From positions 140,486 to 204,485 of the forward strand of contig CAWAQY010000001.1 in assembly GCA_963784375.1 (NCBI GenBank): a DNA stretch of 64,000 bases, given 5' to 3'. A program made the translations under genes and the position numbers. The notes under the pieces are model-generated. The model had not been told where the DNA came from. It saw nothing but the letters and a program-made list of their open reading frames with translations, and did not search any database. The stretch comes from an uncultured Chloroflexia bacterium. GTDB lineage: Bacteria; Chloroflexota; Dehalococcoidia; GIF9; UBA5629. Positions 9,648 to 53,023 of the stretch are shown one piece after another. Every line of letters begins with the position of its first letter. The first letter of the stretch is position 1.

Positions 9648-9691
9648 ACTATGTACCATCGAGAAGTGAGAAAAAGCAAGGAGGCCTGTTA

Positions 9692-10366: not shown

Positions 10367-10385
10367 ATAGGCTTATACTACAGAA

Positions 10386-10423
10386 TGAGCCATCCATTGA
10401 TATAGCGGATGGCTCATTTTTTT
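10386..10423 (+). terminator. Rho-independent terminator after the CoA-transferase genes
   Basis: tgagccatcc (10386-10395), 11-nt loop, ggatggctca (10407-10416), then T7 (10417-10423). Confidence 0.8.
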
Positions 10424-10439
10424 AGCTTCTGAAATATAT

Positions 10440-11651
10440 CTAGACTGTATGTATCCTGCCGCAATGGGGACATTTCACCGTTGTGTTTCTGAAACCCGGG
10501 GGAATTCTCAACCTGGTACCGCAATCGCAGTCTATGGTTTTATAGTCGTGAAGATTCCAGACGGCATTTGATGTCTCTCGCGTTCTCTCTATCTGCTGTT
10601 CAATATTTTCTTTTTCTGCAGCTTCCTGAGTAGCTGCACGAATTGGAACTGCGCCTAAAGCCGTTCCTTCATAAGGAGAAATTATTCCGCTGCGAGACTT
10701 ATGCTCCTGCTGATATGCCTTATCATAATCGCCATATGATGCACCGGCCATTGAACGTAAAATTCGTATTCTCTCCGAAATAGGCGGATGGGTGCTGGTG
10801 ATATCGCTCGCAGCCATACCTTGCTTTCGGAAAGGATTAATAGTATACATGGGGGCGGTTGCCTGCGAAGCAGTCTGCAACTGATAGGTCGATGCTCCCA
10901 GTTTTTCCAATGCGGACGCCAGACCTTCAGGGTATCTGGTATAGAGAGCCGAGCAAGCATCTGCAAGATATTCCCTTTTTCGGGAAACGGCAAAGTAGAT
11001 AAGCTGCGCAAAAATGGGCGCCAGTATCATCAAAACAATAGCCACAACGAGAATTATTAACTGCGCCGAACCACCACCTGATGATGAACTTCTTCTGGAC
11101 CTGCCCAAACCTCCATAAAACATGAAACGCGATGCGTACCACGAAAGTATGACGATAGTCCCAAGTAGCACACTGCACATGGCCATAAGTAACACATCAC
11201 GATTGTTAATATGGGCTAATTCATGGGCAATAACTCCCTGAAGTTCATCCCGATTAAGTTTTTGGAGGAGTCCCGACGTAACGGCTACTGAAGCAGTTTT
11301 GCTATCACGTCCTGTGGCAAATGCGTTCATAGCAGGATCATCAACAATATAAATATCAGGCATTTTCCCCAGGCCGGAAGCAATTTTCATTTCTTCCACG
11401 ATGTTATAAAGGCGGGGATGATCGTCGCGGCTGATCTTTTTTGCTTTCGAAATAGAAAGAAGTATGCTGTCGCCCTGATAATAGGCAACAAGATTAAGTA
11501 TTATCCATAGCACCAGAGCAATGACAAGACCAGATTCACCGCTATCCAGAAAATATAAACCGAGCAAATAACCGAGTGCGAGCAGTAGTATGCCCATGGA
11601 AAGAACAAGTAGTATCGATCTATTCCGGTTAGACTGGATCTGGTGCCACAT
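10440..11651 (-). CDS. M48-family (HtpX-like) zinc metalloprotease with a C-terminal zinc ribbon
   Basis: HELAHINNRD (HExxH), TM segments, C-terminal CDCG...CPHCG. Confidence 0.75.
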   Translation of the reverse strand: MWHQIQSNRNRSILLVLSMGILLLALGYLLGLYFLDSGESGLVIALVLWIILNLVAYYQGDSILLSISKAKKISRDDHPRLYNIVEEMKIASGLGKMPDIYIVDDPAMNAFATGRDSKTASVAVTSGLLQKLNRDELQGVIAHELAHINNRDVLLMAMCSVLLGTIVILSWYASRFMFYGGLGRSRRSSSSGGGSAQLIILVVAIVLMILAPIFAQLIYFAVSRKREYLADACSALYTRYPEGLASALEKLGASTYQLQTASQATAPMYTINPFRKQGMAASDITSTHPPISERIRILRSMAGASYGDYDKAYQQEHKSRSGIISPYEGTALGAVPIRAATQEAAEKENIEQQIERTRETSNAVWNLHDYKTIDCDCGTRLRIPPGFRNTTVKCPHCGRIHTV

Positions 11652-11669
11652 AGCTTAAAAGGCGTTCGG

Positions 11670-12236
11670 TTAAGACGTGAAATTAACCTTTGGTGCTTCG
11701 CGTTCGATGCCCGCAGGTACTTCGAAAAACTCGCCTGTTTTAAAACCCGTCATACTGGCAATGATATTAGAAGGAAACATCTGTGTTTTGTTGTTATAGT
11801 TCAACACCGAGTCATTGAAGAACTGACGGGAAAAACTTATTTTGTTCTCTGTCGAAGTCAATTCTTCCTGAAGTGCCAGAAAATTTTGATTTGCTTTTAA
11901 ATCCGGGTAGCTTTCAGCTACAGCGAGCAACCTGGAAAGAGCAGAACTCAGATCGCCTTCTAATTTTGACCTTTCTCCGGCACCTGCAGATGCGGCCTGC
12001 TGCGCAAGATTGCGCGCTTTGGTAACTGCCTCCAGCGTTTCACGTTCATGTTTTACATAGCCTTTTACCGTCTCAATCAGATTGGGGATAAGGTCATAAC
12101 GCCTTTTTAACTGAACATCTATTTGTGCCCAGGCATTCTTCATCTGGTTACGTAATTTGATCAGGTCATTATAAAAACCAATGAAGATAAACAGTAGAAT
12201 TACGACAATACCGATAATGATCCAGATTGCTATCAT
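11670..12236 (-). CDS. lemA: LemA family protein
   Basis: N-terminal TM followed by YN.L..L.......[16 protein letters not shown], typical of LemA. Classic pairing with an M48 peptidase. Confidence 0.85.
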
Positions 12237-12325
12237 TTATTCCTCCTCAATCTTGTAGTCCTTAACTAATAATATTATTCTTTGGTTTAGATATGCAATT
12301 GAATTTCAAAACAGGATATTCTGCA

Positions 12326-12739
12326 TTATTCTTGTGATTTAAATACCTGTTCCATAAATCCAATAATTTGTTTCTGGGAATCGTCATCTGTATGCGCCTT
12401 AACACAAACTTGTTTTACCAGAGTGTTAATCTCTCCACCATCAAACCACAATCCGTCGCCCACGGGACAAACATCCAGGACTAGTGTTGGACAATCTTGC
12501 ACATTTGATTTTATCATCTTACGGTTGCAGATTGGGCATTTGCGTCGTTTTTCGGATGACTCAATTTCGGGGAAATTTCCGAAATTAAAGGATTCCATAT
12601 CCTCACCGATCGAACGTTCAAGAAAAAGATTTAGCTCCCCTTCGTCAAACCATACGCCCTGACAATTCGCGCAATAGTCGAGCTCAACTTTTTTATACTC
12701 GACCACAATCATATCATGTCTGCAGGCAGGACATATCAT
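12326..12739 (-). CDS. Double zf-TFIIB-type zinc-ribbon protein
   Basis: Two copies of CP.C...M......V.LD.C..C.G.WFD.GE. Confidence 0.6.
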   Translation of the reverse strand: MICPACRHDMIVVEYKKVELDYCANCQGVWFDEGELNLFLERSIGEDMESFNFGNFPEIESSEKRRKCPICNRKMIKSNVQDCPTLVLDVCPVGDGLWFDGGEINTLVKQVCVKAHTDDDSQKQIIGFMEQVFKSQE

Positions 12740-12883
12740 AAATAGTAAGTGTAATTTTAATGAGGAATTATGTCAACAACAACAGAGCTAAACCGGTGAA
12801 TACGTTTATACTCCTGGTCGATGAAAATAATGCCTGTACGTTGAAAGAAGGTTTAAGATTTTAATTGCACGAACGTGAATGAG

Positions 12884-13123
12884 TTAATCAATATCGTCTT
12901 GCGAAACTATTCGTTCCACAAAGCGAATTAAGTTATCTAAATTTGATGCGGCCAGAGAAAGGCCGAGTTGTTTTAACTCAATGTAGCCCAAACCTCTGAA
13001 TAAACGCTGACCTGCTACATTTGCCATCTCATCGTAAAGCGCCGGCCAATTTTTCCCCCGACGTTCAACGCAAAAGAGAACAAATTCTTTAAGTTGCGGG
13101 TCAAGACGATTCATGACTTTCAT
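12884..13123 (-). CDS. Hypothetical small protein (79 aa)
   Basis: ORF only; no clear RBS and no recognisable motif. Confidence 0.3.
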   Translation of the reverse strand: MKVMNRLDPQLKEFVLFCVERRGKNWPALYDEMANVAGQRLFRGLGYIELKQLGLSLAASNLDNLIRFVERIVSQDDID

Positions 13124-13177
13124 GAATTGTTAACGTCTGGAGTCAACAAAAAGTTTAGGCAAAAATCAGCAATTTAT

Positions 13178-13226
13178 AAAAAAATAACCACCCGCCTCTG
13201 CACTTTTGCAGAGGACAGATGGTTAT
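13178..13226 (-). terminator. Rho-independent terminator downstream of the 98-aa zinc-ribbon gene
   Basis: cctctgca-cttt-tgcagagg (13195-13214), extended by ataacca/tggttat. On the minus strand a T7 run follows (A7 at 13178-13184). Confidence 0.7.
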
Positions 13227-13254
13227 TTAAATAAATAGTTTTGTTGTTAATAAA

Positions 13255-13551
13255 TCAGGTTATTTTGGCGCTCGTGGATTTATTAAAGCAGTCGCTGCAA
13301 TAGACCGGTCTGCCGTCGCGTGGCTCAAACGGAACTTCGGTTTCTTTGCCACATTGAGCACAGGTTGCCGGGAACATTTCCCGCGATCTTCCGCCCGTAT
13401 TTCTCTGTGACTTTCTTGTCTGCCGGCATGGCTGACAACGTTTCGGCTCGTTAGTGAAGCCCTTGGTTGAAAAGAACTCTTGTTCCTGTGCGGTAAACGT
13501 AAACGTAGCTCCGCAATCAGCGCATTGAAGTGATTTGTCTTGGAAACCCAA
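13255..13551 (-). CDS. CxxC zinc-ribbon protein (two CxxC...CxxC units)
   Basis: CADCG...CQPC and CAQCG...CSDC. TTG start 7 nt after GGAGG. Confidence 0.65.
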   Translation of the reverse strand: MGFQDKSLQCADCGATFTFTAQEQEFFSTKGFTNEPKRCQPCRQTRKSQRNTGGRSREMFPATCAQCGKETEVPFEPRDGRPVYCSDCFNKSTSAKIT

Positions 13552-13821
13552 TGGATGACCTCCTAAAAATATTTTTGGTTCTGAGTTGCGGTCATCCAGG
13601 ACTTGAGTGAGTTTACAACTACCTGACTAAGTTTGTGATAACCTGAACCGAAACCAAACATATAAAATATACACCAAAGATTTAGTGTTTGCAATAGCTT
13701 CGCTGGAAAAAATTAATGTTATTTACTGAATAATTCCTTGCAGACTGTAAGTAATATCTTGTTATACAAGGTATATAATTGATATACTTAGCGAATTATT
13801 TTTTAAAATCTGGTAATACCC

Positions 13822-14074
13822 ATGACGCCGAAAATACATGTAGATAAACACAGATGCAAAGGTTGCGGTTATTGTGTTGAGTTGTGTCCCGATGAAGACT
13901 TTAAGCATGAGCAAAGAGATCGGACCGAAAGGTTATCACCTGGCAAAAGCCGATGATGAGAGTGAGTGCCTGGAGTGCGGATTGTGCGAGTCGATTTGCC
14001 CCGATTTTGCTTTAACAGTCACTTCCAATAATGAAGATTCGAACTCCACGAATGCGGTAGAAACTCAAAAATAA
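13822..14074 (+). CDS. 2-oxoacid:ferredoxin oxidoreductase delta subunit (2x[4Fe-4S] ferredoxin), frame broken near 13885
   Basis: The first cluster motif CKGCGYCVELCP is read from ATG 13822. The second, CLECGLCESICP, lies in the listed ORF frame. One indel joins them. Confidence 0.75.
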
Positions 14075-14096
14075 AAACGCAGGTCTGTTCTAAAAT

Positions 14097-15252
14097 ATGT
14101 CAGAAAATGCCTTTAACCTGGTACCTATTTTATAAATGGTGACGAAGCCTGCGCTGAAGGAGCTCTGAACGCAGGTTGTCGCTTTTTTGCTGGTTATCCG
14201 ATTACCCCGGCCACCGATATCGCCGAGAGGATGGCATTCCGCCTCCCGCAAGTAGGCGGAGTCTATATTCAGATGGAGGATGAGATCGCCTCTATGAATG
14301 CCATCCTGGGGGCTTCATGGGCAGGAGTAAAGTCTATGACGGCAACTTCCGGCCCCGGTTTCAGCCTCATGATGGAAAACTTGGGTCTTGGGCATTATGC
14401 TGGAGACCCCTTGTGTTCTGGCCAACGTCCAACGGGCTGGCCCATCCACCGGGCTCCCAACCATGGTTGGACAGGGAGATATAATGCAAGCACGATGGGG
14501 CTCTCATGGTTGTTACGAAATAATTGCTCTATCCCCGAATTCGCCACAGGAGATGTTCGACCTTACGATAGAAGCTTTTAATCTTTCCGAAAAGTATCGA
14601 GTTCCAGTACTTCTAATGTCCGACGAAGTCGTCGGACATATGAGCGAAAAGGTGGTTATCACGTCCCCAAATCCAGAATCGCTCATCACACCGGAAAAAA
14701 CCAACGGTCCATCCGGACGAATACCTGCCTTATAAGGCAGATTCCAGCCTGGTTCCTCCCATGGCAATCGCAGGAGAAGGATATCATTTCCACACCACGG
14801 GATTAACTCATGATGAAAGGGGTTACCCTTCAACATCAGTAGAGGTACAGGACCGGTTAGTAAGGCGCTTAGTAGACAAAATACGCCAGAATAAAAAGGA
14901 CATAATCAAGTACCAGGAAATTCAAATTGAAGATGCTGACGTAATCATCTGCGCTTACGGAATCACATCCCGGATCGCCCGGATGGTTGTCAGCATGGCA
15001 CGAGACCAGGGAATTCGAGCAGGACTAATCCGACCGATAACAATCTGGCCATTCCCCGAAGAACGCATCAGAGAACTGGCGTCTCAAGCAAAACTATTCG
15101 TTGTTCCGGAGATAAACTACGGCCAGATCGTATTTGAAGTAGAAAGATGCGCTGCCGGTAAAGCCAGAACGATTCTCGTACCTCATATGGGAGGCAGTGT
15201 GCACACTCCACAATCAATTCTGGAAAAAATAAAGGAAGCATTATCAGGATGA
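14097..15252 (+). CDS. 2-oxoacid:ferredoxin oxidoreductase alpha subunit, at least 3 frame breaks
   Basis: NGDEACAEGALNAGCRFFAGYPITPATDI, MEDEIASMNAILGASWAGVKSMTATSGPGFSLM, VQRAGPSTGLPT and the C-terminal domain are spread over three frames. One break sits at the A6 run 14695-14700. Confidence 0.8.
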
Positions 15253-16110
15253 GTAATCCCAAGTTACAAATGAAGTCGAGCGAAAAACTGTTAAGAACTG
15301 ACAGGTTACCGCACATCTGGTGTCCCGGCTGTGGAATCGGTTCAGCGTTAAGTTGTTTTATCAGAGCTATCAACGAATATTCAGATAAACCTGGACAAGC
15401 TGATAGTAGTATCGGGTATAGGATGTACGGGAAGAGTAGCCGGCTATTTAAAACTGGATTCATTCCACACTACGCACGGACGTGGAATTCCTTTTGCTAC
15501 AGGGTTGAAATTAGCAAACCCGGAATTGAAACTGGTAGTGTTTTCAGGGGATGGTGACCTTGCTGCTATAGGTGGGAATCATCTGATTCATGCCGCCCGC
15601 CGAAATATCGATATGACCGTAATCTGCGTCAATAATTTCATTTACGGGATGACCGGTGGACAAGTTGGCCCAACCTCACCATTAAATGTCCGTACCACTA
15701 CGACCCCATACGGAAATTTCGAACCGCCATTTAATTTGCCTTATCTAATGGCTGCCAGCGGGGCAAGCTATATAGCCAGATGGACGATAATTCATCTGAC
15801 TCAGTTGGAGAGTGCAATTAGTGAAGCTATGACCAGACCCGGTTTTAATTTTATAGAGGTTATCAGCCCATGCCCGACATTATTCGGACGTTTGAATAAG
15901 AAATCTGGAGGGGTTGAGTTCCTGCGTTACTACCAACAAGGAAGCGTAATCCGAAATGGAGCCGATCCCAAGGAAGCCGACATAGAATTTAATGGACCTA
16001 TCATTGTCGGCAAATTTGTTGACAAGAAGCGACCAACACTCGGGGAAAACCTGAGTCAGATGCAACTAAAAGCGAAAGAAATAAAGGAAAGGACTACTAA
16101 TCAGATTTAG
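15249..16110 (+). CDS. 2-oxoacid:ferredoxin oxidoreductase beta subunit (TPP-binding), frame break near 15385-15395
   Basis: WCPGCG, SGIGC (shifted frame), GDGD...NN.IYGMTGGQ. 4-nt overlap with alpha. Confidence 0.8.
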
Positions 16111-20002: not shown

Positions 20003-20050
20003 AAATTTTGGCGGTTAACATAAAACATTAATGATATGCTTTAAATAGTT

Positions 20051-20078
20051 TTGTAGTTAACAAACAGTGGGTTATAAT
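20051..20078 (+). promoter_or_regulatory. Sigma70-like promoter of plsX
   Basis: TTGTAG 20051-20056, 16-nt spacer, TATAAT 20073-20078. Confidence 0.55.
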
Positions 20079-20112
20079 CAAATATATCATTGAAGGCAAG
20101 GATTGTTAACGT

Positions 20113-21117
20113 ATGATAATAGCTGTTGATGCAGACGGCGGGGACTATGCTCCCCGGGAATTGGTCAGAGGAGCAGTTGAAGCTTCCGACGAATATGGCG
20201 TTGGTATTATCCTGATAGGGAAAAAAACTATTCTTGATATGCTGGGTAGACGTTACGGCAGAAAGAAAAGAAATATTACTATCATCGAAGCTACCCAGGG
20301 AATTGAATGCTCTGAATCACCCGTCCAGGCTGTGCGAAGTAAACCGGATTCCTCCATCGTTATCGGGACTAAATTGGTCAAAGATGGCAAGGCTGCCGCT
20401 TTCGTCTCGGCAGGCAGTACGGGAGCCGTTCTCGCCGCAGCGTTTTTGTTTCTGGAAAGAATTAAAGGGGTTCAGCGGCCAGCTCTTTGCGGGATAATTC
20501 AAATTAATCCGCAAAGTCCCGTTCTTCTCATAGATGTCGGAGCCAATGTCGATTGCCGCCCGAACCATCTCGTTCAGTTCGGTCAATTGGGAGCGACTTT
20601 TGCAAAACAATTCCTCTACATAGACTCACCAAGAATCGGACTACTCAATAACGGTTCAGAGGAAATTAAGGGCAACCTTTTGGCAAAAGAAAGCTACCAG
20701 TATTTGCTCAAATCAAATCTCAATTTCATTGGAAATGTCGAAGGCCAGGATATATTACAGAACAAAGCAGATGTTATTGTCACTGATGGTTTTACCGGTA
20801 ATATTGTACTTAAAGCACTTGAAGGATTCGGGGACACTTTCATGAGTGCACTTGGAATCGGTCGTTCTCTAAAAGTAGATCGTCAGCTTCAAGGTTCCGC
20901 CCTGGTTCACTACGTGGAATTAGCGTCAATGGTAAAACGTACAGATTATAAGGAATACGGTGGAGCCTGCCTGCTTGGAGTAAATGGTAATATCATCGTC
21001 GCCCACGGCCGCAGCCAATCGAGAGCCATAAAAAACGCAATACATCTCGCCCATCACGCCAGTGAAACAGGCGTACTGGATGCAATCAAAAATAGTAGCT
21101 ATATAGAAAGACAATAA
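20113..21117 (+). CDS. plsX: Phosphate acyltransferase
   Basis: IAVDA.GGD.AP, SAGSTGA, DVGAN.DC, VTDGFTGN..LK, GG..LLGV.G..I..HG.S. 334 aa. Confidence 0.9.
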   Translation: MIIAVDADGGDYAPRELVRGAVEASDEYGVGIILIGKKTILDMLGRRYGRKKRNITIIEATQGIECSESPVQAVRSKPDSSIVIGTKLVKDGKAAAFVSAGSTGAVLAAAFLFLERIKGVQRPALCGIIQINPQSPVLLIDVGANVDCRPNHLVQFGQLGATFAKQFLYIDSPRIGLLNNGSEEIKGNLLAKESYQYLLKSNLNFIGNVEGQDILQNKADVIVTDGFTGNIVLKALEGFGDTFMSALGIGRSLKVDRQLQGSALVHYVELASMVKRTDYKEYGGACLLGVNGNIIVAHGRSQSRAIKNAIHLAHHASETGVLDAIKNSSYIERQ

Positions 21118-21139
21118 CCAGTACACCGGTAAACAGTTT
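21041..21139 (+). repeat. Left copy of the 99-bp direct repeat (last 77 nt of plsX plus 22 nt downstream)
   Basis: 98 of 99 positions identical to 28541-28639; the only mismatch is at 21129. Weaker similarity continues for about 25 bp. Confidence 0.95.
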
Positions 21140-21362
21140 ATTTTGTGACACTTTTTCCCGTCTTACAGTTTGCTGCAGTCAAGATAATTAATCCTTATTT
21201 CAAATTTGCAAACGGTAAGCGCACCAAAACCAGGTAAAAGACGACCAGGACTCAATCGCCTTTCGACATCAGAGATATTTGCACACCTTTTAAATTAATT
21301 AATGTGAATAATGGATGTGAATAATTTGCTGTTGGATAAGTAGGCTTGTGGAATTATTGAAT

Positions 21363-21986
21363 TCAGAATCTATTCTTTTCAGCAATAGATTCACGAAAAA
21401 CGTTCCAAAGCCTTGAATATTTCTCTTCCAGATTAAAATCGTAGTTGCTCAACGACCAGATATTTACCAGCCCCTGGATCATTCCGAACAGAATTAGTGC
21501 GGCTGCTTCAATATCTACATCCTCTTTGACCTCTCCGGTCTTTATCCCTTCGGATAATAGATGTTTTAAGCCGATGACATAGTTATTTATGACCACAGAA
21601 ACCTTTTTGTTTAGCTTTTTTTCCCCAAAACTGATAATTTCAGCTATAACCTGAAAAGATATACCTTTTTTTTGCTGTATGCGTGACAAATGATTCTTTA
21701 AGACAGTATCTAGAAATTCCAGCGAAGTGGAGTTTGTATAAATATGCTTATTGATATCCCCCAGAAGGTCATCTGCAATACGGTCAGCCAATCCAGACAA
21801 AACGTCGCTTTTACTTTTAAAATGCCGATAAATAGCACCCTCAGATATACCAACTTCTTTGGCAATTTTCCCAACGGTTACGTGTTCGCTACCGTATTTA
21901 ACTACCAGCTTCCGAGAAGCATCTATTATCTGGTCTTTCCTGATTGCTGAACTCAAGTGTATTCTACCATCTCCACATCTAAACAC
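21363..21986 (-). CDS. TetR/AcrR family transcriptional regulator
   Basis: N-terminal HTH: VTVGKIAKEVGISEGAIYRHFKSK. About 200 aa, all-helical. Confidence 0.8.
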   Translation of the reverse strand: MFRCGDGRIHLSSAIRKDQIIDASRKLVVKYGSEHVTVGKIAKEVGISEGAIYRHFKSKSDVLSGLADRIADDLLGDINKHIYTNSTSLEFLDTVLKNHLSRIQQKKGISFQVIAEIISFGEKKLNKKVSVVINNYVIGLKHLLSEGIKTGEVKEDVDIEAAALILFGMIQGLVNIWSLSNYDFNLEEKYSRLWNVFRESIAEKNRF

Positions 21987-22014
21987 TTTTTATCCTTGAA
22001 TTACGACTTAAAAG

Positions 22015-22132
22015 CCTCTTGACAAATTTTCATTTTATGTTATTATTTATGTAAGTGAATAATTACTTATTAGTATGTTAATGTTTACTTATTATATATA
22101 TTTTTACTAGTTATTTGTCAAGTAGCAAGAGG
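22015..22132. promoter_or_regulatory. Intergenic control region: inverted repeat cctcttgacaaat ... atttgtcaag(tagca)agagg carrying two facing promoters
   Basis: Plus strand: TTGACA 22019-22024, N16, TATTAT 22041-22046. Minus strand: TTGACA 22121-22116, N17, TATATA 22098-22093. The two -35 boxes lie in the two arms of the inverted repeat. Confidence 0.4.
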
Positions 22133-22137
22133 TTTCA

Positions 22138-22420
22138 ATGATGGGATTATTTAAAAAGAAAATAATAAAGGAAATCCCTGGGGGAGCCTGGGGACATTTA
22201 ATATATGCACACAAAATGGACGTTGATATCCTCGCTAGAGATATACGCTGTGTCGAACGTGAAGGACTCCTTGAAGGTAAATGGAAGGTACGTTTTCTCC
22301 GAGTTTTCAGCTTATCAGAAACAAAGGAGAAGGGGATAGCAATTGAGCGGATGGGAGACTTTTGACCAGCATCCCGAGTTAATACTCTTCGAAGGCTATT
22401 GGCAGGAATATTACAAATGA
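22138..22420 (+). CDS. Hypothetical protein (about 93 aa), frame break near 22340
   Basis: The 75-aa ORF continues in another frame as GWETFDQHPELILFEGYWQEYYK*. Confidence 0.45.
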
Positions 22421-22486
22421 GGCAAATCTTCAACGGAAAAGAACAATTGAATAATTTGTTTTAGATTGAAAGGAGAACAGGAAAAA

Positions 22487-22670
22487 ATGTCACAACAAAA
22501 TACACCAGAACAAAAGAAGCCTGAAATAAAGGTTGGAGAAGAAATAAAAAAGTCAAAAGGGTTCTGGGGAAAATTTATGACATTTCTTGATGATGGGTGG
22601 GTTCATTGTGGTTCTTATTGTCGCTGTTGGGTTGATGATTGCCATTTCGTTGATATTTAAGTGCAAATGA
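22487..22670 (+). CDS. Small membrane protein, frame break near 22590
   Basis: ATG 22487 after aaggaga. The C-terminal hydrophobic helix MMGGFIVVLIVAVGLMIAISLIFKCK* is read in a shifted frame. Confidence 0.4.
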
Positions 22671-22942
22671 AGATGTTCATTATTGTTCCGGATAAACCAC
22701 TCATTGCTGAGATTGGATACATATGATTATTTACTAAAACCTGGATAAGTATGAGCGATAAAGATAAGTCATTGATTTTATTGAGTATTTTTCTGCATTA
22801 ATATGACACGAGAATCCTTGAGGGCATCTACGATTTCAAAATCGTTCGTTTCAAACAATTTCCCGTATTGAAATGACTGCTGATATCTACACCAGATAGC
22901 CCGTTTAATTGGAACACAAACCCCGGGGTTTACTAAAACATC

Positions 22943-22965
22943 CTACAATATATTAATATATGTAG
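22943..22965. promoter_or_regulatory. AT-rich palindrome abutting the otsA RBS (candidate TetR operator or mRNA hairpin)
   Basis: ctac-a-ATATATTAATATAT-gtag. The 14-bp core is a perfect palindrome. GAGGAG follows immediately and the GTG start is at 22980. Confidence 0.4.
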
Positions 22966-22979
22966 AGGAGAATAATTTC

Positions 22980-24455
22980 GTGGCCTGGACAAAAGATGAT
23001 TTACAGCAATTAGTAAAATCCAAGTTAGAGGATTACCTTTTTGTTGTAGTTTCAAATCGAGAACCTTACATCCATATTTCTACCAATGAGGGTATAAAAT
23101 GCCTGATTCCAGCCAGCGGATTAACGGTCGCTCTTGATCCCATAATGCGCACCAGCCATGGTACCTGGATAGCACATGGCAGCGGAGACGCCGACAAACA
23201 GGTGGTTGATATCCACAATAGAGTGATGGTACCACCTGAGGACCCGAGTTATACTTTACGCCGGGTGTGGCTTACAAACGAAGAAGAACAAGGTTACTAT
23301 TATGGTTTTTCCAACGAAGCTCTCTGGCCGCTATGCCACATCGTATACACAAGACCTCTTTTTGATGAAGGAAATTGGAACACTTACAAACATGTAAATC
23401 AACTTTTTGCGGATGCTATTTTAGATGAAATTGATGGCCGCAAGGCATTTGTTTTTATTCAGGACTATCATCTGTCCTTATTATCTCAGTTGATAAAAAA
23501 GGAAAATCCGAATGTAATCACAGCTCAATTCTGGCATATTCCCTGGCCAAATCGAGAAGCTTTCCGCATCTGCCCATGGCATGAAGAAATCCTCCACGGT
23601 CTATTGGGCAATGATCTCCTTGGTTTTCATCTCCGTTATCACTGTAACAATTTTCTGGATACTGTAGACCGGCTAATTGAAGCAAAAGTTGACTGGGAAA
23701 GATATGAGGTAACCTGCGGCGGAAAGAAGACAGCAGTGCGTCCATTCCCGATAAGCGCTGATTTTGAAAAAATCTCCGAGGCAGCAATACAAAAGGAAGT
23801 AACTGCGGAAATTGATGTTATACGCAATCAATGGAAAATTAAAAACGAAATAATTGGAATTGGAACAGACAGGATAGATTATACTAAAGGCATTCCTGAC
23901 AGGCTCAAAGCTCTGGACAAGTTGTTCCTAAACTACCCTGAATATAAGAATAACCTGGTCTTTTTCCAGCTATCAGCTCCTAGCCGCACAGACATCCAGA
24001 GGTATCGAGAGCTAAATGCTGAGATTGACAGCCTGGTTGAAGATATAAACGAAAGACACAAATCAGGAGATTGGATACCTATTATTCACATTAAAGGGCA
24101 TCAATCTCATCACCAACTTTTAGCATTCAACCGACTGGCTAACTTTTGCATCGTAAGTTCCCTGCACGATGGTATGAATTTAGTTGCCAAGGAATTCGTT
24201 TCCAGCAGAACCGACAATGATGGTGTCCTGATACTGAGCCGTTTCACCGGTGCCGCAAGGGAATTAGAAGAAGCTCTACTGATTAATCCTTATGATCTTG
24301 GCGATATTACCGAAGCGATAAGGAGCGCTATTGAGATGCCGAAAGAAATGCGGAAAAAACGAATGAAGAAAATGCGGAAAAAAGTGGAGGAAAACAACAT
24401 ATACAAATGGGCAGGTGATATTATCTCAGAACTAACCAGCCTCGGTTCTGCATAA
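22980..24455 (+). CDS. otsA: Trehalose-6-phosphate synthase (GT20)
   Basis: VVSNREPY, GGL..AL, FWHIPWP, LL..DL.GF, GVDR.DY.KGI, LHDGMNLVAKEF. 491 aa. Confidence 0.85.
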   Translation: MAWTKDDLQQLVKSKLEDYLFVVVSNREPYIHISTNEGIKCLIPASGLTVALDPIMRTSHGTWIAHGSGDADKQVVDIHNRVMVPPEDPSYTLRRVWLTNEEEQGYYYGFSNEALWPLCHIVYTRPLFDEGNWNTYKHVNQLFADAILDEIDGRKAFVFIQDYHLSLLSQLIKKENPNVITAQFWHIPWPNREAFRICPWHEEILHGLLGNDLLGFHLRYHCNNFLDTVDRLIEAKVDWERYEVTCGGKKTAVRPFPISADFEKISEAAIQKEVTAEIDVIRNQWKIKNEIIGIGTDRIDYTKGIPDRLKALDKLFLNYPEYKNNLVFFQLSAPSRTDIQRYRELNAEIDSLVEDINERHKSGDWIPIIHIKGHQSHHQLLAFNRLANFCIVSSLHDGMNLVAKEFVSSRTDNDGVLILSRFTGAARELEEALLINPYDLGDITEAIRSAIEMPKEMRKKRMKKMRKKVEENNIYKWAGDIISELTSLGSA

Positions 24456-24468
24456 ACAGGCATTTTTT

Positions 24469-25270
24469 ATGCAATATCTTTTAGATGCTTGGGAATATAT
24501 TAGTAATAGAATAAAAAATGCCCGGCAAACGCTCATCGTCTTTGATTTTGATGGAACCTTAACTCCCATAATGGACACACCTGAAATGGTGAAACTAAGT
24601 GAAGATATGAAGGAGCTCCTGAGAAATCTAGCAAAACACCGTGGTTTTACAGTTGCTATTGTGAGCGGTAGAGCAATCAATGATATTCGGAACAAAGTAG
24701 CAATTTCGGAAGTGATCTATGCTGGTAATCATGGACTCGAGATTGTTGGGCCTAATATGAGTTTTGTTCACCCTATCGCTGAAGAAATCAGGCCAATATT
24801 GCGAATTTTAGGGATTATTTTAAAAAAAACACTCGGTGCATTCAAAGGGACTGCGGTCGAAGATAAAGGTGTTACTCTAACCGTTCACTATCGCCTCGCC
24901 AGATGAAGATCAATTGGACTATATAAAAAGTACGGTAAATAATACAGTTGGACCCGCTAAAGTGCTCGGCAAAGTGAGGACTAGTACGGGCAAGAAAGTG
25001 ATTGAAGTCAGGCCCGCGGTTCCATGGGATAAAGGGAAAGCGGTAAAATTCATTATGAAACGCAAGGCCAGAGGAGGCAGAGAGAGCGGACTTCTTCCTA
25101 TTTATATTGGTGATGATTTGAGCGACGAAGATGCTTTTGAAGTTATTGAACGCTATGGTGGTATTGCTGTGTATGTTGGCCAAGAATACACCCATTCAAT
25201 AGCAAACTATTTTCTAAGATCAACTTCAGAAGTAGAAGATTTCATTAGAAAATTACTGTCATTAAATTAA
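24469..25270 (+). CDS. otsB: Trehalose-6-phosphate phosphatase (HAD), frame break near 24899
   Basis: FDFDGTL (DxDxT), AIVSGR, EVRP..WDKG.A, GDD.SDEDAF. The two ORFs join as ...HYRLA-DEDQLDYIK.... Confidence 0.8.
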
Positions 25271-25279
25271 GGAATTAAC

Positions 25280-26653
25280 ATGGTTGAATGGTTGAACGAA
25301 AATTGGACAATTTTAACTGTACCCATTGTTGTATTTCTAGCTTTCTGCATTATTGCTATATGGGCCAGGAAACTCTTGTACGATTACTTAAACATTTGGT
25401 CTGTTAAAACCAAGTGGGAAGGCCGCTACGTAATTCTGGAAACGCTGAGAACTCCATTCTTTCAATGGTGTTTGCTTCTGGGTGCTTATATTGCAATGCT
25501 GCTTTCTACCCTGTCACAAGAAGGCAAAGACCTTGCAAGCACAGTTCTGGCTTCGCTCTTCATCGTTTCTTTAGGATGGTGCATCCTTTCAATTGCGGAA
25601 AAGCTCATTCGAATTTATGTTAATCGTTTGAAAATTCCGCCATTGTCAATCAGATTAATAATCGGCATAGTGCGGGTTATTATCCTGTCAGTGAGCCTAC
25701 TCATGATTATTGATGTTTGGGGAGCTCCAGTGACCTCATTGCTGCTGCTAATTGCCGCCTTAATATTGATAGCAGTGGTTGCCTCGCGCGATACTTTACT
25801 TAATATTTTCGCAGGACTGCAGCTAGCTACAGGTGATGCGATTAAGACTGGTGATTACATCAAGTTAGAATCTGGAGATGAGGGTTATGTAATGCAAATA
25901 GCATGGAGAAGCACGAGAATCAAAACTCTCGATGACAAACTTATATTATTACCTAACAGCAAATTAATCCAGAATACAGTTGTCAATTATGGGCATCCGC
26001 TTAAGAAAGCAACTCAACCATTCAAATTTTATACCAGGTTCCACTTGAAGGAATTGACCGGCCTTAAAGCCAACAGCCTCTCGCAACTTAAAACCATATT
26101 AGAAAAAGCTCCTGACGCTGCGATCTATTATCATACTCACCATTTTTTAGAAGAATTCAAATATTTGGAACCTGAACCTGCTAATGATTTTGCTTTGTGG
26201 GTGGATGATGCCCTCGGAGATGCAGTCCTGTCAGAAAAGTTGGCAAGTATCGATACCTTTCAGTTTTCAACCATAAATTCTCTTAAACGGAGGATAACCG
26301 AAGTAATCGGGGAATATCTGTCCACCAAACCGGATGAACATATTGCACCTCAGGGTAATGAATTCCACTTTATTAAATCAATAAGTATCGTCCTGCCCAC
26401 GCCTTATGTGGCTCACGATTTAAGAGAATTTGTCGAAGTATTAAGGAAGGTAACTATATATTCCATCTATTTCCATGTCTTCGAAGCTCGCCTTAGATTG
26501 CATACAGGTAATAACGATTTTTCTGCATGGTTTCGAGATAGTTTAGGAGAGAATGATCTGGCTGACAAGATTTCAGAACTTGACCCATATGCCCGATCGT
26601 TGGAATCGTTGAGATCCATGATTATTCAGCAGATCGAGAAACGTATTAAATAA
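25280..26653 (+). CDS. MscS-type mechanosensitive channel fused to a tandem pair of ~105-aa domains of unknown function
   Basis: MscS TM3/beta-domain pattern (NIFAGLQLATGDAIKTGDYIKL..G.EGYV..I..RSTRIKT.D...I.LPNSKL). Residues from about 245 to 457 form two mutually similar units (F.F...L.E....L......IY.H....NDF..W..D.LG...L...I...D....SL..LR..I). Confidence 0.7.
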   Translation: MVEWLNENWTILTVPIVVFLAFCIIAIWARKLLYDYLNIWSVKTKWEGRYVILETLRTPFFQWCLLLGAYIAMLLSTLSQEGKDLASTVLASLFIVSLGWCILSIAEKLIRIYVNRLKIPPLSIRLIIGIVRVIILSVSLLMIIDVWGAPVTSLLLLIAALILIAVVASRDTLLNIFAGLQLATGDAIKTGDYIKLESGDEGYVMQIAWRSTRIKTLDDKLILLPNSKLIQNTVVNYGHPLKKATQPFKFYTRFHLKELTGLKANSLSQLKTILEKAPDAAIYYHTHHFLEEFKYLEPEPANDFALWVDDALGDAVLSEKLASIDTFQFSTINSLKRRITEVIGEYLSTKPDEHIAPQGNEFHFIKSISIVLPTPYVAHDLREFVEVLRKVTIYSIYFHVFEARLRLHTGNNDFSAWFRDSLGENDLADKISELDPYARSLESLRSMIIQQIEKRIK

Positions 26654-26665
26654 AGGAATTGAATC

Positions 26666-27907
26666 ATGACAACAATGACAAACCTCCCAGCTAAAATACA
26701 GGATTATCAACCCATTGTGGGCAAAAATACCATTGACGAATTACGTATGCTTGCAGATAAGCTCAGAGGGAAGGTCATTAACAATATAAATTCAACATTT
26801 TCCGGTGGAGGTGTTGCTGAGATTTTAACCCGCATGGTTCCGCTTCTAACTCAACTGGGAGTCGACGCACGCTGGAACATTATCCAGGGAAATGCTACAT
26901 TTTTTGAAATTACCAAGAAATTCCACAATGCTTTTCATGACAGAACTGAGAATATAACAAAGGAAGACTTTTCGATTTTTCTGGAAGTTACCCAGAAGAA
27001 CATCGAAGAACTTAAATTGCACGGAGACGTATTTTTTATTCATGATCCACAACCGGTGGCTTTAATAAGTAATAAGGAAAAGCTAGGCGGCAAATGGATT
27101 TGGAGATGCCATATAGATATTTCCAAACCACAACAAAATGTGTGGGAATTCTTCCGTAATTATGTAATTAAATATGATGCTGCGGTATTTTCAGCCCCCA
27201 GTTTTGCTCAGCAATTGCCCATCCGGCAATTTATGATATCGCCTTCTATTGATCCGTTGAGTGATAAAAACAAGGACCTGTCTCAGGAAGCAATAGATGC
27301 AGTGCTTGATAACTATGGACTGGACGCAGCGAAACCAATGATCGTGCAAATATCTCGGTTCGACTATTTGAAAGATCCGATTGGAGTAATCGAAGCTTTC
27401 GAAACTGTCAAGAAAACTATAGATTGCCAACTAGTCCTGGCGGGAGGCACTGCCGACGATGACCCGGAATCAGCTAAAGTATTATCAGAAGTTAAAAACC
27501 GGGCTGCTGATAATCCAGACATACACATTTTGCTGATTCCTCCCGATAGCAACATCGAGATTAATGCCCTGCAAAGAGCAGCCACCGTTATCATACAAAA
27601 ATCACTTAAAGAGGGTTTCGGATTAACAATTAGTGAAGCGTTGTGGAAGGGTAAACCTGTAATAGCCAGTGCGGTAGGCGGTATACCTCTTCAAATTAAA
27701 AATCGACTTACAGGTCTACTGTGTTATAGTACTGAGGGTGCAGCTTACGGGTTGAAGCAACTACTAAGCAATCCTGAATATGCTAATAGGCTGGGGAAAA
27801 ATGGACACGAACATGTAAAACAGAATTTCCTGATAACACGACATCTTAAAGAATATATGCTTTTATTTTTAGTACTGGATAATGCATCCGATGTTATTTG
27901 TTTGTAA
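26666..27907 (+). CDS. treT: GT4 glycosyltransferase, trehalose glycosyltransferring synthase (TreT)-like
   Basis: NST..GGGVAEIL...VPL...LGVDARW.II.G...FF..TKK.HN resembles remembered archaeal TreT. C-terminal GT-B E-x7-E region (EGFGLTISEALWKGKPVI). Confidence 0.65.
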   Translation: MTTMTNLPAKIQDYQPIVGKNTIDELRMLADKLRGKVINNINSTFSGGGVAEILTRMVPLLTQLGVDARWNIIQGNATFFEITKKFHNAFHDRTENITKEDFSIFLEVTQKNIEELKLHGDVFFIHDPQPVALISNKEKLGGKWIWRCHIDISKPQQNVWEFFRNYVIKYDAAVFSAPSFAQQLPIRQFMISPSIDPLSDKNKDLSQEAIDAVLDNYGLDAAKPMIVQISRFDYLKDPIGVIEAFETVKKTIDCQLVLAGGTADDDPESAKVLSEVKNRAADNPDIHILLIPPDSNIEINALQRAATVIIQKSLKEGFGLTISEALWKGKPVIASAVGGIPLQIKNRLTGLLCYSTEGAAYGLKQLLSNPEYANRLGKNGHEHVKQNFLITRHLKEYMLLFLVLDNASDVICL

Positions 27908-27985
27908 GTAAATAGAAAATTGGCTTGATACATGTATTGGATAGTTGCGAGACAATGATTAATAATTGGATAGGAGGTAAATACT

Positions 27986-28201
27986 ATGGCAAGTATTGTC
28001 CGTTGGTATGATAAAAAGATAGAAAAGTTAAGACAGTTACCAAAATGTCACCTCCTCCTATTAATAGCGGTCAAGTTTCTCGCTGGGGTGGCATTAGGTT
28101 TGCTGCTGGCAACGTGGTTGCCAATATGGATATGGTGGATATTTCTTGCTATAGCTCTGATAATAGCTATTCCACTTTATAAGACGATTTTCAGCAAGTA
28201 A
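27986..28201 (+). CDS. Small two-TM membrane protein
   Basis: taggaggt RBS 7 nt upstream of the ATG; two hydrophobic helices. Confidence 0.5.
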   Translation: MASIVRWYDKKIEKLRQLPKCHLLLLIAVKFLAGVALGLLLATWLPIWIWWIFLAIALIIAIPLYKTIFSK

Positions 28202-28540
28202 AGTGGCGTTAGTCATAGCGGCTCGAAAAACGTATATTTATTCATGGGGCTAGCGGCGTTCTCTCCTCATCTCTTTGGGTCTACATTTTCCCAACCCACA
28301 TGTTTTTAACATCTAGTGAACAAATAGCTTATTTAAGAGTCGATCCACCAGATTAGCCACAACACATCTCTTAAGCACATCGTCAGTCTCAATGCCTTTA
28401 TATATCTCCTAGTCATCTTCAAGGTTGTATGTTCTAACCTATTGTAACTAAAGCCTCACTAGGTGGAACTAGAGCACTGTACGTTAGTCTCTTTGCGATT
28501 TGAAGAGCCAACTGTGTAAACAAAACGACACACAAATTGC

Positions 28541-28639
28541 TACATCTCGCCCATCACGCCAGTGAAACAGGCGTACTGGATGCAATCAAAAATAGTAGCT
28601 ATATAGAAAGACAATAACCAGTACACCGATAAACAGTTT
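28541..28639 (+). repeat. Right copy of the 99-bp direct repeat (orphan plsX 3' fragment)
   Basis: Same sequence exactly 7500 bp downstream. The frame upstream of it hits a stop at 28501-28503 and shows no plsX similarity. Confidence 0.95.
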
Positions 28640-28672
28640 TTTTGTATTTTTTTTTCCCTCTGATAATCAGGC

Positions 28673-28701
28673 TTGCATGTCAGTATCTCTAGGTATATAA
28701 T
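28673..28701 (+). promoter_or_regulatory. Sigma70-like promoter upstream of the permease gene
   Basis: TTGCAT 28673-28678, 17-nt spacer, TATAAT 28696-28701. Confidence 0.5.
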
Positions 28702-28852
28702 GCCCATGTTTTTTGACTTTGTCCTGATGACCGAATTTTTCCACTTAAATATGAAGGCTCGTAGATATACTGATAATGCCCATTTCAAAACACTATAATA
28801 ATAATATTCCGGTCTCTTTTTCGAAGAGGCTGAGGAAAGGTGAAGGTGATCA

Positions 28853-30214
28853 ATGCTCACATTAAGCCAGATTCTTGCCATCGCTATATTCCTGATAATG
28901 TTTGTCGTCATTACGATTGGCAAAGTACACCGCTACATCCCCGCTCTGATCGGCGGTGGCGTTGTGGTGGTAGTTGTTTTTCTGGGAGTAATGCAGAGCC
29001 CTGAAGCCGTGACCAATACTTTCAACCTCGGTCAACTTGGCCAACTCAGGTTCTGGTTTCCAGGCCATGAACCTCTTGAATCAAGGGGAATAAACTGGCA
29101 AACTATCGTCTTCATCGCCGGCATGATGCTCATGGTGGAGGGACTTGCCATTGCGGGTTTCTTCCGCTGGTTATGCCTTTACGTAGCCAGAATTTGTAAA
29201 TATCAGGTTATACCCATATTTATCGCCTTCATTATACTTTCCGGTTTTCTTTCCATGTTCATTGATAGTATCACCGTCATGCTGTTTCTTGCCTCAGTTA
29301 CCATCGAACTGGCTCGTTTGCTTAAATTTGATCCCATACCAGTCATAATCGCCGAGATTTTTGCCTCTAATACCGGTGGCAGTGCCACAATGTCTGGTGA
29401 CCCCCCAAATATAATTATCGGAACCGCCTTCGGTTACACGTTCACCGATTTCATTACCAATACCGGGCCGATTGCCTGGGCAGGGATGATCGTAGTTGTT
29501 ATTTTCTTTTATTTCTGTTTCCGCAAAATTCTTGCACCTCCAAAAAATGTAACAGGTGACTCGAAGAAAACATATCCCCAACCCAGAGAAGCCATTACCA
29601 ATCCTCGTCTTTTTGTCCTGAGTACCTGCATTTTCATCCTGTTAATAGTATTGCTGGTCACCCATGCTCAAACTGGATTGTCGGTAGCCACCATAGGCGT
29701 CATTGCGGCTGTGCTCACTTTACTGAACTCAGGCAAGGGAGCATCTCATATCATTAAGAAATTTGACTGGCGAACCGTGCTGTTTTTTGTGGGCTTATTT
29801 GTTTGTGTCGGTGGACTTGAGGAAACGGGAACATTGAAAGTAGTGGCTAAAGTCATCGGAGAAGCATCCGGAGGAAAAGCCACTCTGGTAATACCAATAA
29901 TCCTCTGGTTATCCGCAATTGTCTCAGCTCTGGTAGATAATATTCCACTTGCTGCGACGCTCGTACCTGTAATCAGCAACCTCGCCCAGACTACCGGAAT
30001 AAGTCTACAATCATTAGCCTGGACTACTGCCCTGGGCACAGACATCGGCGGTAATGCTACTCCTATAGGGGCTTCTGCTAATGTGGTGGGTACAGCAGTG
30101 GCCGAGAAAGAAGGTTATCCCTGTGGATGGGGCAGATATTGTAAATATGCCATTCCGGGAACTATTCTCGTGGTTGGTGTTTGTCACTTTTTGCTCATAT
30201 TATTACATACTTAA
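28853..30214 (+). CDS. ArsB/NhaD-superfamily (citrate-transporter-like) permease
   Basis: 453 aa, 10-12 TM segments, internal repeat architecture, motifs SNTGGSATMSGDPPN and GGNATPIGASAN. Confidence 0.7.
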   Translation: MLTLSQILAIAIFLIMFVVITIGKVHRYIPALIGGGVVVVVVFLGVMQSPEAVTNTFNLGQLGQLRFWFPGHEPLESRGINWQTIVFIAGMMLMVEGLAIAGFFRWLCLYVARICKYQVIPIFIAFIILSGFLSMFIDSITVMLFLASVTIELARLLKFDPIPVIIAEIFASNTGGSATMSGDPPNIIIGTAFGYTFTDFITNTGPIAWAGMIVVVIFFYFCFRKILAPPKNVTGDSKKTYPQPREAITNPRLFVLSTCIFILLIVLLVTHAQTGLSVATIGVIAAVLTLLNSGKGASHIIKKFDWRTVLFFVGLFVCVGGLEETGTLKVVAKVIGEASGGKATLVIPIILWLSAIVSALVDNIPLAATLVPVISNLAQTTGISLQSLAWTTALGTDIGGNATPIGASANVVGTAVAEKEGYPCGWGRYCKYAIPGTILVVGVCHFLLILLHT

Positions 30215-32105: not shown

Positions 32106-32282
32106 AATAGTCATTAAATTATCTTATAATTGCTCTCGCGCAAATTTACGTTTAAGCAATAAAGATGGCGGCGAAGGGCAGCAAGTGATAGAATAAAAGA
32201 TAAAAGGGGGTAAAAGGAGAAATCAAATAGACGTAAGATTTCACTTATTTCACTGGATCAATTAATGATTAAGGAAGGAAAA

Positions 32283-32582
32283 ATGAAAAAAGTAATTATT
32301 TTAGTTGTCTGTTTAGTTGTTGCCGCTGTTATCATATTACCCACCGCTATACTTGCTGCAACCTGTGACGGCATCCCCTGGGTGAGCGGCGTAGGCAAAT
32401 ATGAGGGTATTCCCTGGGTCAGTGGTGTGGGTAAGTATGATGGTATTCCCTGGGTCAGTGCTGTAGGCAAGTATGATGGTATTCCCTGGGTCAGTGCCGT
32501 TGGCAAATTTGACGGTATTCCCTGGGTTAGTGCCGTTGGCAAATATGATGGCATTCCCTGGATCAGCGGCGTCTGCAAGTAA
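32283..32582 (+). CDS. Small secreted (possibly lipid-anchored) protein made of six tandem 12-residue repeats DGIPWVSGVGKY
   Basis: aaggaagg RBS 5 nt before ATG 32283. Signal-like N-terminus KKVIILVVCLVVAAVIILPTAILAATC. The repeats differ mostly at synonymous sites. A strong terminator follows. Confidence 0.7.
   Translation: MKKVIILVVCLVVAAVIILPTAILAATCDGIPWVSGVGKYEGIPWVSGVGKYDGIPWVSAVGKYDGIPWVSAVGKFDGIPWVSAVGKYDGIPWISGVCK
32367..32582 (+). repeat. Six head-to-tail 36-nt coding repeats
   Basis: Units start at 32367, 32403, 32439, 32475, 32511 and 32547. The last ends GVCK* instead of GVGKY. Confidence 0.95.

Positions 32583-51079: not shown

Positions 51080-53023
<1,944 letters not shown>

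Follow-up and report, generated by a model that had tools for sequence, protein, structure and literature searches.

A putative small genomic island with a trehalose osmoprotection operon at the 3' end of plsX in an uncultured Dehalococcoidia bacterium

Gene content of the locus

This report concerns a 7.5-kb interval that follows the plsX gene (phosphate acyltransferase) in a 64-kb stretch of DNA from an uncultured Dehalococcoidia bacterium; the whole of this stretch is referred to as the window, and all coordinates, unless another contig is named, are window positions. On the left, the interval is bordered by an intact plsX, the product of which has homologues, 60-99% identical and named PlsX, in metagenome-assembled genomes of Dehalococcoidia/Chloroflexota (PlsX homologues carry the names Dehalococcoidia, Dehalococcoidales or Chloroflexota). 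On the right, it is bordered by the promoter and the gene of a permease of the CitMHS/ArsB superfamily. Between these flanks lie the genes for a TetR-family regulator, two small open reading frames (ORFs), the trehalose genes otsA and otsB, a gene for a mechanosensitive channel fused to a DUF5752 domain, a gene for a TreT-like glycosyltransferase and a gene for a small membrane protein (Table 1), and the whole is bracketed by a direct repeat that includes the 3' end of plsX. As argued below, the interval, from about 21140/21167 to 28540/28663, is best explained as a small genomic island that carries a trehalose osmoprotection operon and encodes no recombinase.

The cargo had been listed in an earlier note on this DNA, which was drawn up from the letters alone. 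Pfam confirms the genes of that list, with the qualification that, in the window, the first small ORF is frameshifted and a 1-nt indel near 24901 divides otsB into two ORFs. The genes for the GT20 synthase, the trehalose phosphatase, the MscS protein and the TreT-like GT4 enzyme are, by their Pfam assignments, adjacent and co-oriented, as the genes of an operon are. The nearest curated model for the TetR protein is the Bacillus-type FadR/YsiA (NCBIfam FadR), which it matches with 90 bits, below the cut-off of 200. The TreT-like protein scores 361 bits against NCBIfam TreT, below the equivalog cut-off of 775, and may itself act as a trehalose synthase or else activate the synthase; an exact-match look-up of this protein found no record. 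The first small ORF has no match in Pfam, NCBIfam or PHROG, and, in the literature, no paper mentioning DUF5752 was found, the domain having no described function. Judged by the families of its genes, the cargo would provide for the use of trehalose as a compatible solute, for its release through the channel on osmotic downshift and for control of the system by the TetR protein.

The non-coding right end of the interval shows similarity only to one other contig among the fetched loci, the second assembly described below (L001). The promoter of the right flank is sigma-70-like and conserved (TTGCAT-N17-TATAAT); beyond the permease gene follow a frameshifted gene for a universal stress protein (Usp) and, on the minus strand, an Exo_endo_phos gene.

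Table 1. Features of the plsX locus and of the interval inserted behind it (window coordinates)
Feature	Position	Strand	Remarks
plsX (phosphate acyltransferase), intact, target gene	20113-21117	+	334 aa; Pfam FA_synthesis E=1e-93, residues 2-321
Left repeat copy, attL-like	21041-21166	+	near-perfect 21041-21139; degenerate T-rich tail 21140-21166, ending ...CTTAC
TetR-family regulator, convergent with plsX	21363-21986	-	Pfam TetR_N, TetR_C_4
First small ORF, no family	22138-22365	+	frameshift-truncated in the window; 111 aa in L001 (L001:12003-12338)
Second small ORF, no family	22466-22660	+	60-64 aa; weakly conserved, 70% aa identity between the two strains
otsA, trehalose-6-phosphate synthase, GT20	22980-24455	+	Pfam Glyco_transf_20 E=1e-125; NCBIfam trehalose_OtsA E=4e-129
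otsB, trehalose-6-phosphate phosphatase	24469-25270	+	Pfam Trehalose_PPase matches both halves
MscS-type mechanosensitive channel-DUF5752 fusion	25280-26653	+	Pfam MS_channel_2nd and DUF5752
TreT-like GT4 glycosyltransferase	26666-27907	+	Pfam TreT_GT1 and Glycos_transf_1
Two-helix membrane protein (predicted)	27986-28201	+	71 aa; 91.5% aa identity to L001; SLATT-like matches sub-threshold only
Non-coding right end of the island	28202-28540	.	~340 nt; no ORF, no RNA-family match
Right repeat copy, attR-like, orphan plsX 3' fragment	28541-28663	+	near-perfect 28541-28639; degenerate tail 28640-28663
Right flank, outside the island	28664-30214	+	promoter 28673-28701; CitMHS/ArsB-superfamily permease gene 28853-30214

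The repeat of the plsX 3' end

The repeat search returned 21041-21143 and 28541-28643 as one repeat family of 103 nt, with 98% identity and a start-to-start spacing of 7500 bp. Alignment of the two copies bears out the count given in the earlier note: 98 of the 99 positions in 21041-21139 match their counterparts in 28541-28639, the sole mismatch being G21129 versus A28629. A 48-nt core of the repeat occurs exactly twice in the window, as compared to 0 occurrences expected from 100 shuffles; no third copy was found in the 64 kb and, two local repeats aside, the plsX-3' pair is the only long dispersed repeat of the window. In the exact 7500-bp spacing we see no significance.

The near-perfect part of the left copy consists of the last 77 nt of the intact plsX, up to and including the stop codon at 21115-21117, and of the 22 nt downstream. 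The right copy is, indeed, an orphan: in the plsX frame it reads ...HLAHHASETGVLDAIKNSSYIERQ followed by a stop codon, and the sequence before it is unrelated, as this frame runs into a stop codon at 28501-28503 and nothing similar to PlsX was found upstream of 28541. The 5' edge of the repeat is abrupt; the 3' edge fades gradually, through T-rich tails (21140-21166 and 28640-28663) that can still be aligned, with 8-9 differences over ~30 nt (~27%), so that the degenerate continuation of about 25 bp noticed earlier is real. In all, the repeated segment spans ~125 nt, namely, the last 77 nt of plsX and ~48 nt downstream, and the differences between the copies are unevenly spread over it: the 77 coding nt have none, the 22 non-coding nt that follow have 1, and the ~30 nt of the tail have 8-9. 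Since a duplication formed in situ would decay evenly, the incoming DNA already had a plsX-3'-like segment of its own. To judge from these differences, the two copies would relate either as the attachment site of an element to that of a chromosome (attP to attB), or as a donor's to a recipient's orthologous sequence.

An RNA element within the repeat was considered and rejected: the folds of both copies, on both strands, gave z-scores of -1.1 to +0.3. A search of Rfam over 20900-29000 gave no match even at E<=1.

A second assembly of the locus

The locus is also covered by an ENA metagenome contig, ERZ25039554 contig_88473 (L001), which encodes the exact PlsX protein and shares 96.3% identity with the window along 21 kb, with the same gene order and both repeat copies. 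In a four-way alignment, the G/A difference between the left and the right copy is common to the window and L001. L001 is an independent assembly of a different strain, and the repeat structure is not an assembly artefact. The idea that the second copy, or the whole junction, was produced by misassembly of noisy long reads has a negligible probability: the window does contain many single-base indels that split genes, and is error-prone at the base level, but errors of this kind cannot make a 7.5-kb insertion of coherent genes, and L001, with different frameshifts, has both copies at the same places along with the diagnostic G/A difference.

Single-base frameshifts affect otsB, the Usp gene and the first small ORF in the window, and tetR and the 5' end of the CitMHS gene in L001, where otsB is intact (266 aa). 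Because the affected genes differ between the two assemblies, the splits are probably base-level errors of long-read assembly rather than marks of pseudogenes. Genes split by indels were noted, for example, at 24901, 30859, 4788-7410 and 52145-53023 in the window, and at 11250-11842 and 18887 in L001.

The two strains are not equally similar throughout the island. Over a 2.9-kb tract, ~21230-24114, which extends from tetR to the middle of otsA (11100-14000 in L001), they are 81-95% identical, as compared to a background of ~99%. At least one further, diverged version of the left half of the island thus appears to exist in the population and to have recombined in. The tract resembles an imported diverged allele, which would probably point to a third, more distant lineage with the tetR-otsA arrangement. 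The right edge of the tract, near 24114, is sharp.

Empty sites in relatives

If the interval is an insertion, relatives might be expected to retain the site without it, and the arrangement predicted in the earlier note, namely, plsX, a single copy of the segment, the sequence from 28640 onward and the permease gene, was found in two of them. The first, L149, is a 1997-bp short-read contig, the PlsX of which is 99% identical at the amino acid level and about 93-95% at the nucleotide level. It aligns at 95.4% to 20018-21166, that is, up to 21166 on the side of the left copy, and at 92.5% to 28541-29511, and only one copy of the segment is present, shared by both alignments; here plsX is followed by one segment copy and then by the CitMHS promoter and gene. 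The tail of this copy is unlike both tails of the window; hence, L149 did not arise through the collapse of window-like reads during assembly. In the second relative, L087 (PlsX 84%), plsX is followed by a 265-nt spacer and CitMHS, and the spacer carries the same TTGCAT-N17-TATAAT promoter as the window. The plsX 3' end of L087 is only ~75% identical to the repeat, whereas the window copies are 99% identical to each other; therefore, the adjacency of plsX and CitMHS is old and the duplication is young.

Given the empty sites in both L149 and L087, the 7.5 kb represent an insertion and not an ancestral feature that was lost elsewhere, the ancestral order in the lineage being plsX, a short spacer, and the CitMHS promoter and gene. 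The permease gene itself belongs to the flank and not to the island, as it is present in the empty sites and tracks the phylogeny of PlsX, being 86% identical to its counterpart in L002 (PlsX 88%), a relative with plsX, versus 73% in L145, a locus that bears the trehalose operon. Thus, ~7.5 kb were inserted between plsX and the CitMHS promoter, and the insertion is flanked by plsX-3' segments whose tails have separate histories.

It might be argued, conversely, that the block is ancestral here, the orphan segment being all that is left of a second plsX copy gone to decay or of a tandem duplication at the locus, and that the empty relatives lost the block by deletion between the repeats. Such a deletion would yield exactly the junction seen in L149, and the operon stands directly before CitMHS-Usp in L145/L146 as well, so that the adjacency of the block and CitMHS is not unique to the window. 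Nevertheless, we consider this history very improbable. A paralogue would fade gradually, whereas here the copies are 99% identical, the 5' edge is abrupt and no decayed plsX lies upstream; the candidate of a decayed second plsX was ruled out on the lack of any similarity upstream of 28541. L087, with plsX ~75% identical at the nucleotide level, already has the plsX-CitMHS order, and a repeat that old would not still be 99% identical. Furthermore, more distant relatives have neither the block nor CitMHS after plsX, the divergence of the tails is too great for a duplication in situ, and the window CitMHS follows PlsX rather than the operon.

The three versions of the tail, those of L149, the left copy and the right copy, are roughly equidistant in pairwise alignments (7-9 differences), and the side of the tail on which the crossover occurred can therefore not be placed. 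A first idea, that the empty site is closer to the left tail, was dropped, as pairwise alignment gave no clear preference. In addition, between the window and L149 there are 0 mismatches over 20986-21133 (148 nt), as compared to 4.4% over the rest of plsX; the chance of such a mismatch-free stretch somewhere in plsX is ~7%. The coincidence of this stretch with the repeat suggests that the segment may have been exchanged or homogenised between lineages.

In the wider neighbourhood, a B12-radical-SAM gene followed by plsX is kept in all close relatives, and the gene 3' of plsX differs in nearly every one of them. Specifically, Exo_endo_phos directly follows plsX in L153 (PlsX 84%), L008 (81%) and L080 (79%), and comes after DUF2807 in L009 (75%); rpsU-yqeY occupies this place in L150/L151 (88%) and archease-rtcB in L005 (71%). 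In L002, CitMHS and Exo_endo_phos are inverted and lie on the far side of a ferredoxin/oxidoreductase cluster. The 3' flank of plsX was noted as a hot spot of synteny breakpoints in the clade, with an inversion breakpoint in L002. Also in L002, ~3.4 kb downstream of plsX (11000-14364) contain almost no called genes, only one 137-aa ORF; this region could consist of pseudogenes or be another inserted element.

Composition of the interval

An island of foreign origin is expected to differ in composition from its surroundings, and the interval does so, weakly but consistently. Its GC content is 39.3%, as compared to 43.0% for the window and 45.4% for the whole of plsX, and it has the lowest GC of 113 sliding 7.4-kb segments. 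The tetranucleotide distance of the block to the rest of the window falls in the top 4.4%, and the mean GC content at third codon positions is 0.365 for the block genes versus 0.425 for 31 other genes (Mann-Whitney p=0.003). The windowed comparison that the earlier note had proposed thus finds the block deviating, but only mildly, and the contrast drawn there from spot counts, with 57% GC for plsX taken from a single line, was overstated. A deviation of this size is compatible with a related, slightly AT-richer donor lineage.

Possible routes of integration

How, then, could the island have arrived? With about even confidence, we propose that it has att-like ends, having entered as a circle through one crossover at the 3' end of plsX, with an integrase that has since become unlinked. 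In this scenario, the incoming circular molecule would have carried a plsX-3'-like segment, the equivalent of attP, and by recombining once, reciprocally, with the 3' end of the chromosomal plsX it would have left this gene intact and both junctions with a copy of the segment. Most likely, this exchange would have been catalysed by a site-specific recombinase whose linkage to the island has since ended; this recombinase could have been lost by decay, or else supplied in trans by a co-resident tandem element that later left. The earlier note had read the repeats as the attL/attR footprint of site-specific integration. The insertion at the plsX 3' end and the role of the repeats as its junctions are borne out by the empty sites, whereas the part of a site-specific recombinase in it is no more than likely. 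Since RecA-dependent integration of the Campbell type leaves the same footprint, attL/attR should be understood as a label for the layout and not as a demonstrated mechanism. Among the named categories, the cis-mobilizable element (CIME) comes closest, given the absence of integration genes.

Mobility genes were sought with Pfam, NCBIfam and PHROG in the ORFs of the block, including the small ones, and with Pfam in another 42 ORFs of the window, drawn from a list of 63 that are at least 110 aa long; the scanned window ORFs number 58, and the 42 comprise housekeeping genes only. Five unscanned genes of 201-438 aa, all well outside the island (10440-11651, 11670-12236, 12326-12739, 14761-15252 and 15505-16110), have Pfam calls in L001, namely, Peptidase_M48/M56, LemA, zinc ribbon, POR and TPP-enzyme subunits, with no recombinase family among them, and none of the remaining unscanned ORFs in this set exceeds 144 aa. 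When ORFs of at least 30 aa were listed in the non-coding ends of the island, none was of gene size.

Several results of these and other searches weigh against the proposed course of events. Neither the island nor the 58 scanned ORFs yielded a recombinase, integrase, excisionase, relaxase or transposase, or a remnant of any of these, in agreement with the observation of the earlier note that the block lacks an integrase, an excisionase and a transposase. A blastn comparison of the whole island with plasmid and phage collections returned only an 82-nt match in otsA, and a scan of viral contigs for the plsX-3' segment, both exact and codon-degenerate, returned no match. When ~140 fetched plsX loci of at least 3 kb were compared with themselves, a second copy of the plsX 3' end was found only in L001; recurrent use of the site is therefore not shown. 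The alignments of the repeat and the tails reveal no short common core flanked by inverted repeats. Identity over 99 nt is long enough for RecA-dependent recombination, for which no integrase is needed. Finally, the island holds cargo only, so that its descent from an integrative and conjugative element (ICE), an integrative and mobilizable element (IME) or a prophage is an assumption.

Some better-known kinds of elements can be set aside. Phage or plasmid genes were found neither in the block nor among the 58 scanned ORFs, and, with no recombinase found beside the repeat, the interval does not qualify as a prophage, ICE or IME that encodes its own integration. A composite transposon or an insertion-sequence event was rejected on the lack of a transposase and of terminal inverted repeats, and on the duplication of ~100-125 nt with non-identical tails.

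The same footprint could have arisen by homologous recombination alone. Under this alternative, the strongest of those considered, a fragment from a closely related donor, starting 77 nt before the plsX stop and extending through tetR and the following genes to treT, would have been circularised by illegitimate end-joining and then inserted by a single RecA-dependent crossover within the 99-nt homology; the repeats would be ordinary homology and not att sites. We regard this as possible but rather unlikely. It accounts for the lack of a recombinase in the island and the scanned window ORFs, and it reads the abrupt 5' edge of the repeat as the illegitimate junction and the gradual 3' decay as the orthologous spacer of the related donor; a FadR/YsiA-like TetR gene would be a plausible native neighbour of plsX in the donor lineage, and the 2.9-kb tract (21.23-24.11 kb, 81-95% versus ~99% identity) indicates that homologous recombination is active at the locus. 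Yet a tetR homologue was found beside plsX in none of the other fetched loci. Moreover, a donor with a spacer diverged by ~27% should show synonymous differences, whereas the copies have none in their 77 coding nt. The two steps required, in which a piece of chromosome first becomes a circle and then recombines within no more than 99 nt, would make for a rare event, and the greater uniformity of the plsX 3' end between lineages, as compared to the rest of the gene, would be left without an explanation.

Relation to known islands

CIMEs are defined as decayed integrative elements that have kept attL and attR but lost the genes for integration and transfer (PMC5704250). The island resembles them in having direct repeats at its ends, of which one serves a housekeeping gene as its functional 3' end, in holding cargo only, without an integrase or transfer genes, and in having an empty site in relatives; this correspondence is at the level of structure only. 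It differs from them in that neither relics of genes for integration or conjugation nor a tandem partner or other neighbouring element were found in the 64-kb window or in the 21 kb of L001, and descent from an ICE or IME has to be assumed. The repeat is also longer: the founding CIME examples, in Streptococcus thermophilus, have 27-bp fda repeats, as compared to 99 nt near-perfect and ~125 nt in all in the present case.

Closer in taxonomy are the genomic islands at the ssrA gene of Dehalococcoides, which have direct repeats of the 3' end of the gene at their borders, and 15 of which lack an integration module; the authors considered the latter as possibly cis-mobilizable (PMC3146451). Common to those islands and to the one described here are the class Dehalococcoidia and a repeat-bounded insertion where an essential, single-copy gene has its 3' end. 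Otherwise the two differ: the ssrA islands have the transfer-messenger RNA (tmRNA) gene ssrA as target and a 20-bp repeat, a DsiB-type serine recombinase and a tandem array of islands, and reductive dehalogenase cargo, whereas here the target is the protein-coding plsX, the repeat spans 99-125 nt, neither such a recombinase nor such an array was found, and the cargo serves osmoprotection. Membership in the ssrA family was rejected because the target is plsX, no serine recombinase was found and the window contains no tmRNA or tRNA gene.

With respect to the length of the repeat, the island is similar to the integrative plasmids of actinomycetes, such as SLP1, in which the identity segment is ~112 bp: these, too, carry a copy of ~100 nt of the 3' end of their target, which stays intact. 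SLP1-type elements, however, encode their own tyrosine integrase and excisionase beside attP and target tRNA genes. A literature search found no paper that pairs plsX with the integration of a genomic island.

The trehalose operon at other loci

The cargo operon is by no means confined to this island. At E<=1e-30, 773 homologues share the architecture of the MscS-DUF5752 protein. Six contexts were inspected, namely, five fetched loci, of which three are cut off by contig ends, and one contig with gene calls only; in these, the channel gene lies between otsB and the TreT-like gene, in the same four-gene order. On the nearest contigs that bear the operon, otsA-otsB-mscS-treT are found at other chromosomal places and without tetR. 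In the P0122 contig (channel 82% identical), the operon is followed by GYD and kdpC; L144 (79%) retains the four-gene order; in L147/L148 (69%), the operon lies between a fur-znuABC cluster and a PALP gene, and in L145/L146 (68%; 7713-15243) it occupies the same locus as in L147/L148, with CitMHS-Usp added after treT. The trehalose operon and CitMHS-Usp have thus come to lie side by side on at least two independent occasions, and this is suggestive of a functional link between them.

A comparable operon is known from Thermoproteus tenax, where genes for a synthase/phosphatase of trehalose-6-phosphate (TPSP), an activating glycosyltransferase and a mechanosensitive channel have been proposed to form a stress-response unit (PMC3634074). 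Both operons combine the synthase and phosphatase functions, a GT4 glycosyltransferase and an MscS-type channel. The archaeal enzyme is a TPSP fusion, whereas here otsA and otsB are separate; furthermore, the present operon, known from its genes alone, has a channel with a C-terminal DUF5752 domain and an attached TetR regulator.

Other repeats in the window

Two observations made elsewhere in the window may be recorded here. The 105-aa ORF at 32265-32582 (+) has a signal-peptide-like N-terminus, behind which come six tandem 12-aa units DGIPWVSAVGKY, which are encoded by a tandem repeat at 32376-32566 with a 36-nt period and 86% matches; a homologous tandem-repeat gene is present in L002 (558-872). 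Near the left end of the window, an 84-nt direct repeat (211-294 and 370-453, 90% identity, 159 nt apart) lies upstream of, or inside the end of, a short-chain dehydrogenase gene region, and each of its copies contains the hairpin-forming inverted repeat GACAGGACGATTTTGTCGTCCTG.

Implications

The island adds no new kind of element or mechanism: the island type is already known, and the cargo operon is widespread. It does, however, add the protein-coding plsX to the insertion sites of the class, where earlier Dehalococcoidia islands were described at the tmRNA gene.

A further and more speculative idea, to which we attach only a low probability, is that the last ~100-150 nt of plsX are a live attachment site in this group of Dehalococcoidia, through which operon cassettes without an integrase, the trehalose module among them, would be shuttled between related lineages. 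A recombinase with its gene at another place in the genome, or else the homologous recombination of the host by itself, would serve for this transfer. If true, this would explain why the segment is identical across lineages that are 4-5% apart elsewhere in plsX, and, likewise, why there are three versions of the T-rich tail and a variable gene after plsX.

Whichever way it was inserted, a clean island with att-like ends, in which no recombinase was found, bears on the question of how cargo-only islands move. For the organism, the locus documents the recent gain of a full osmoprotection module by an uncultured member of the Dehalococcoidia, with the states before and after this gain both represented in public data.

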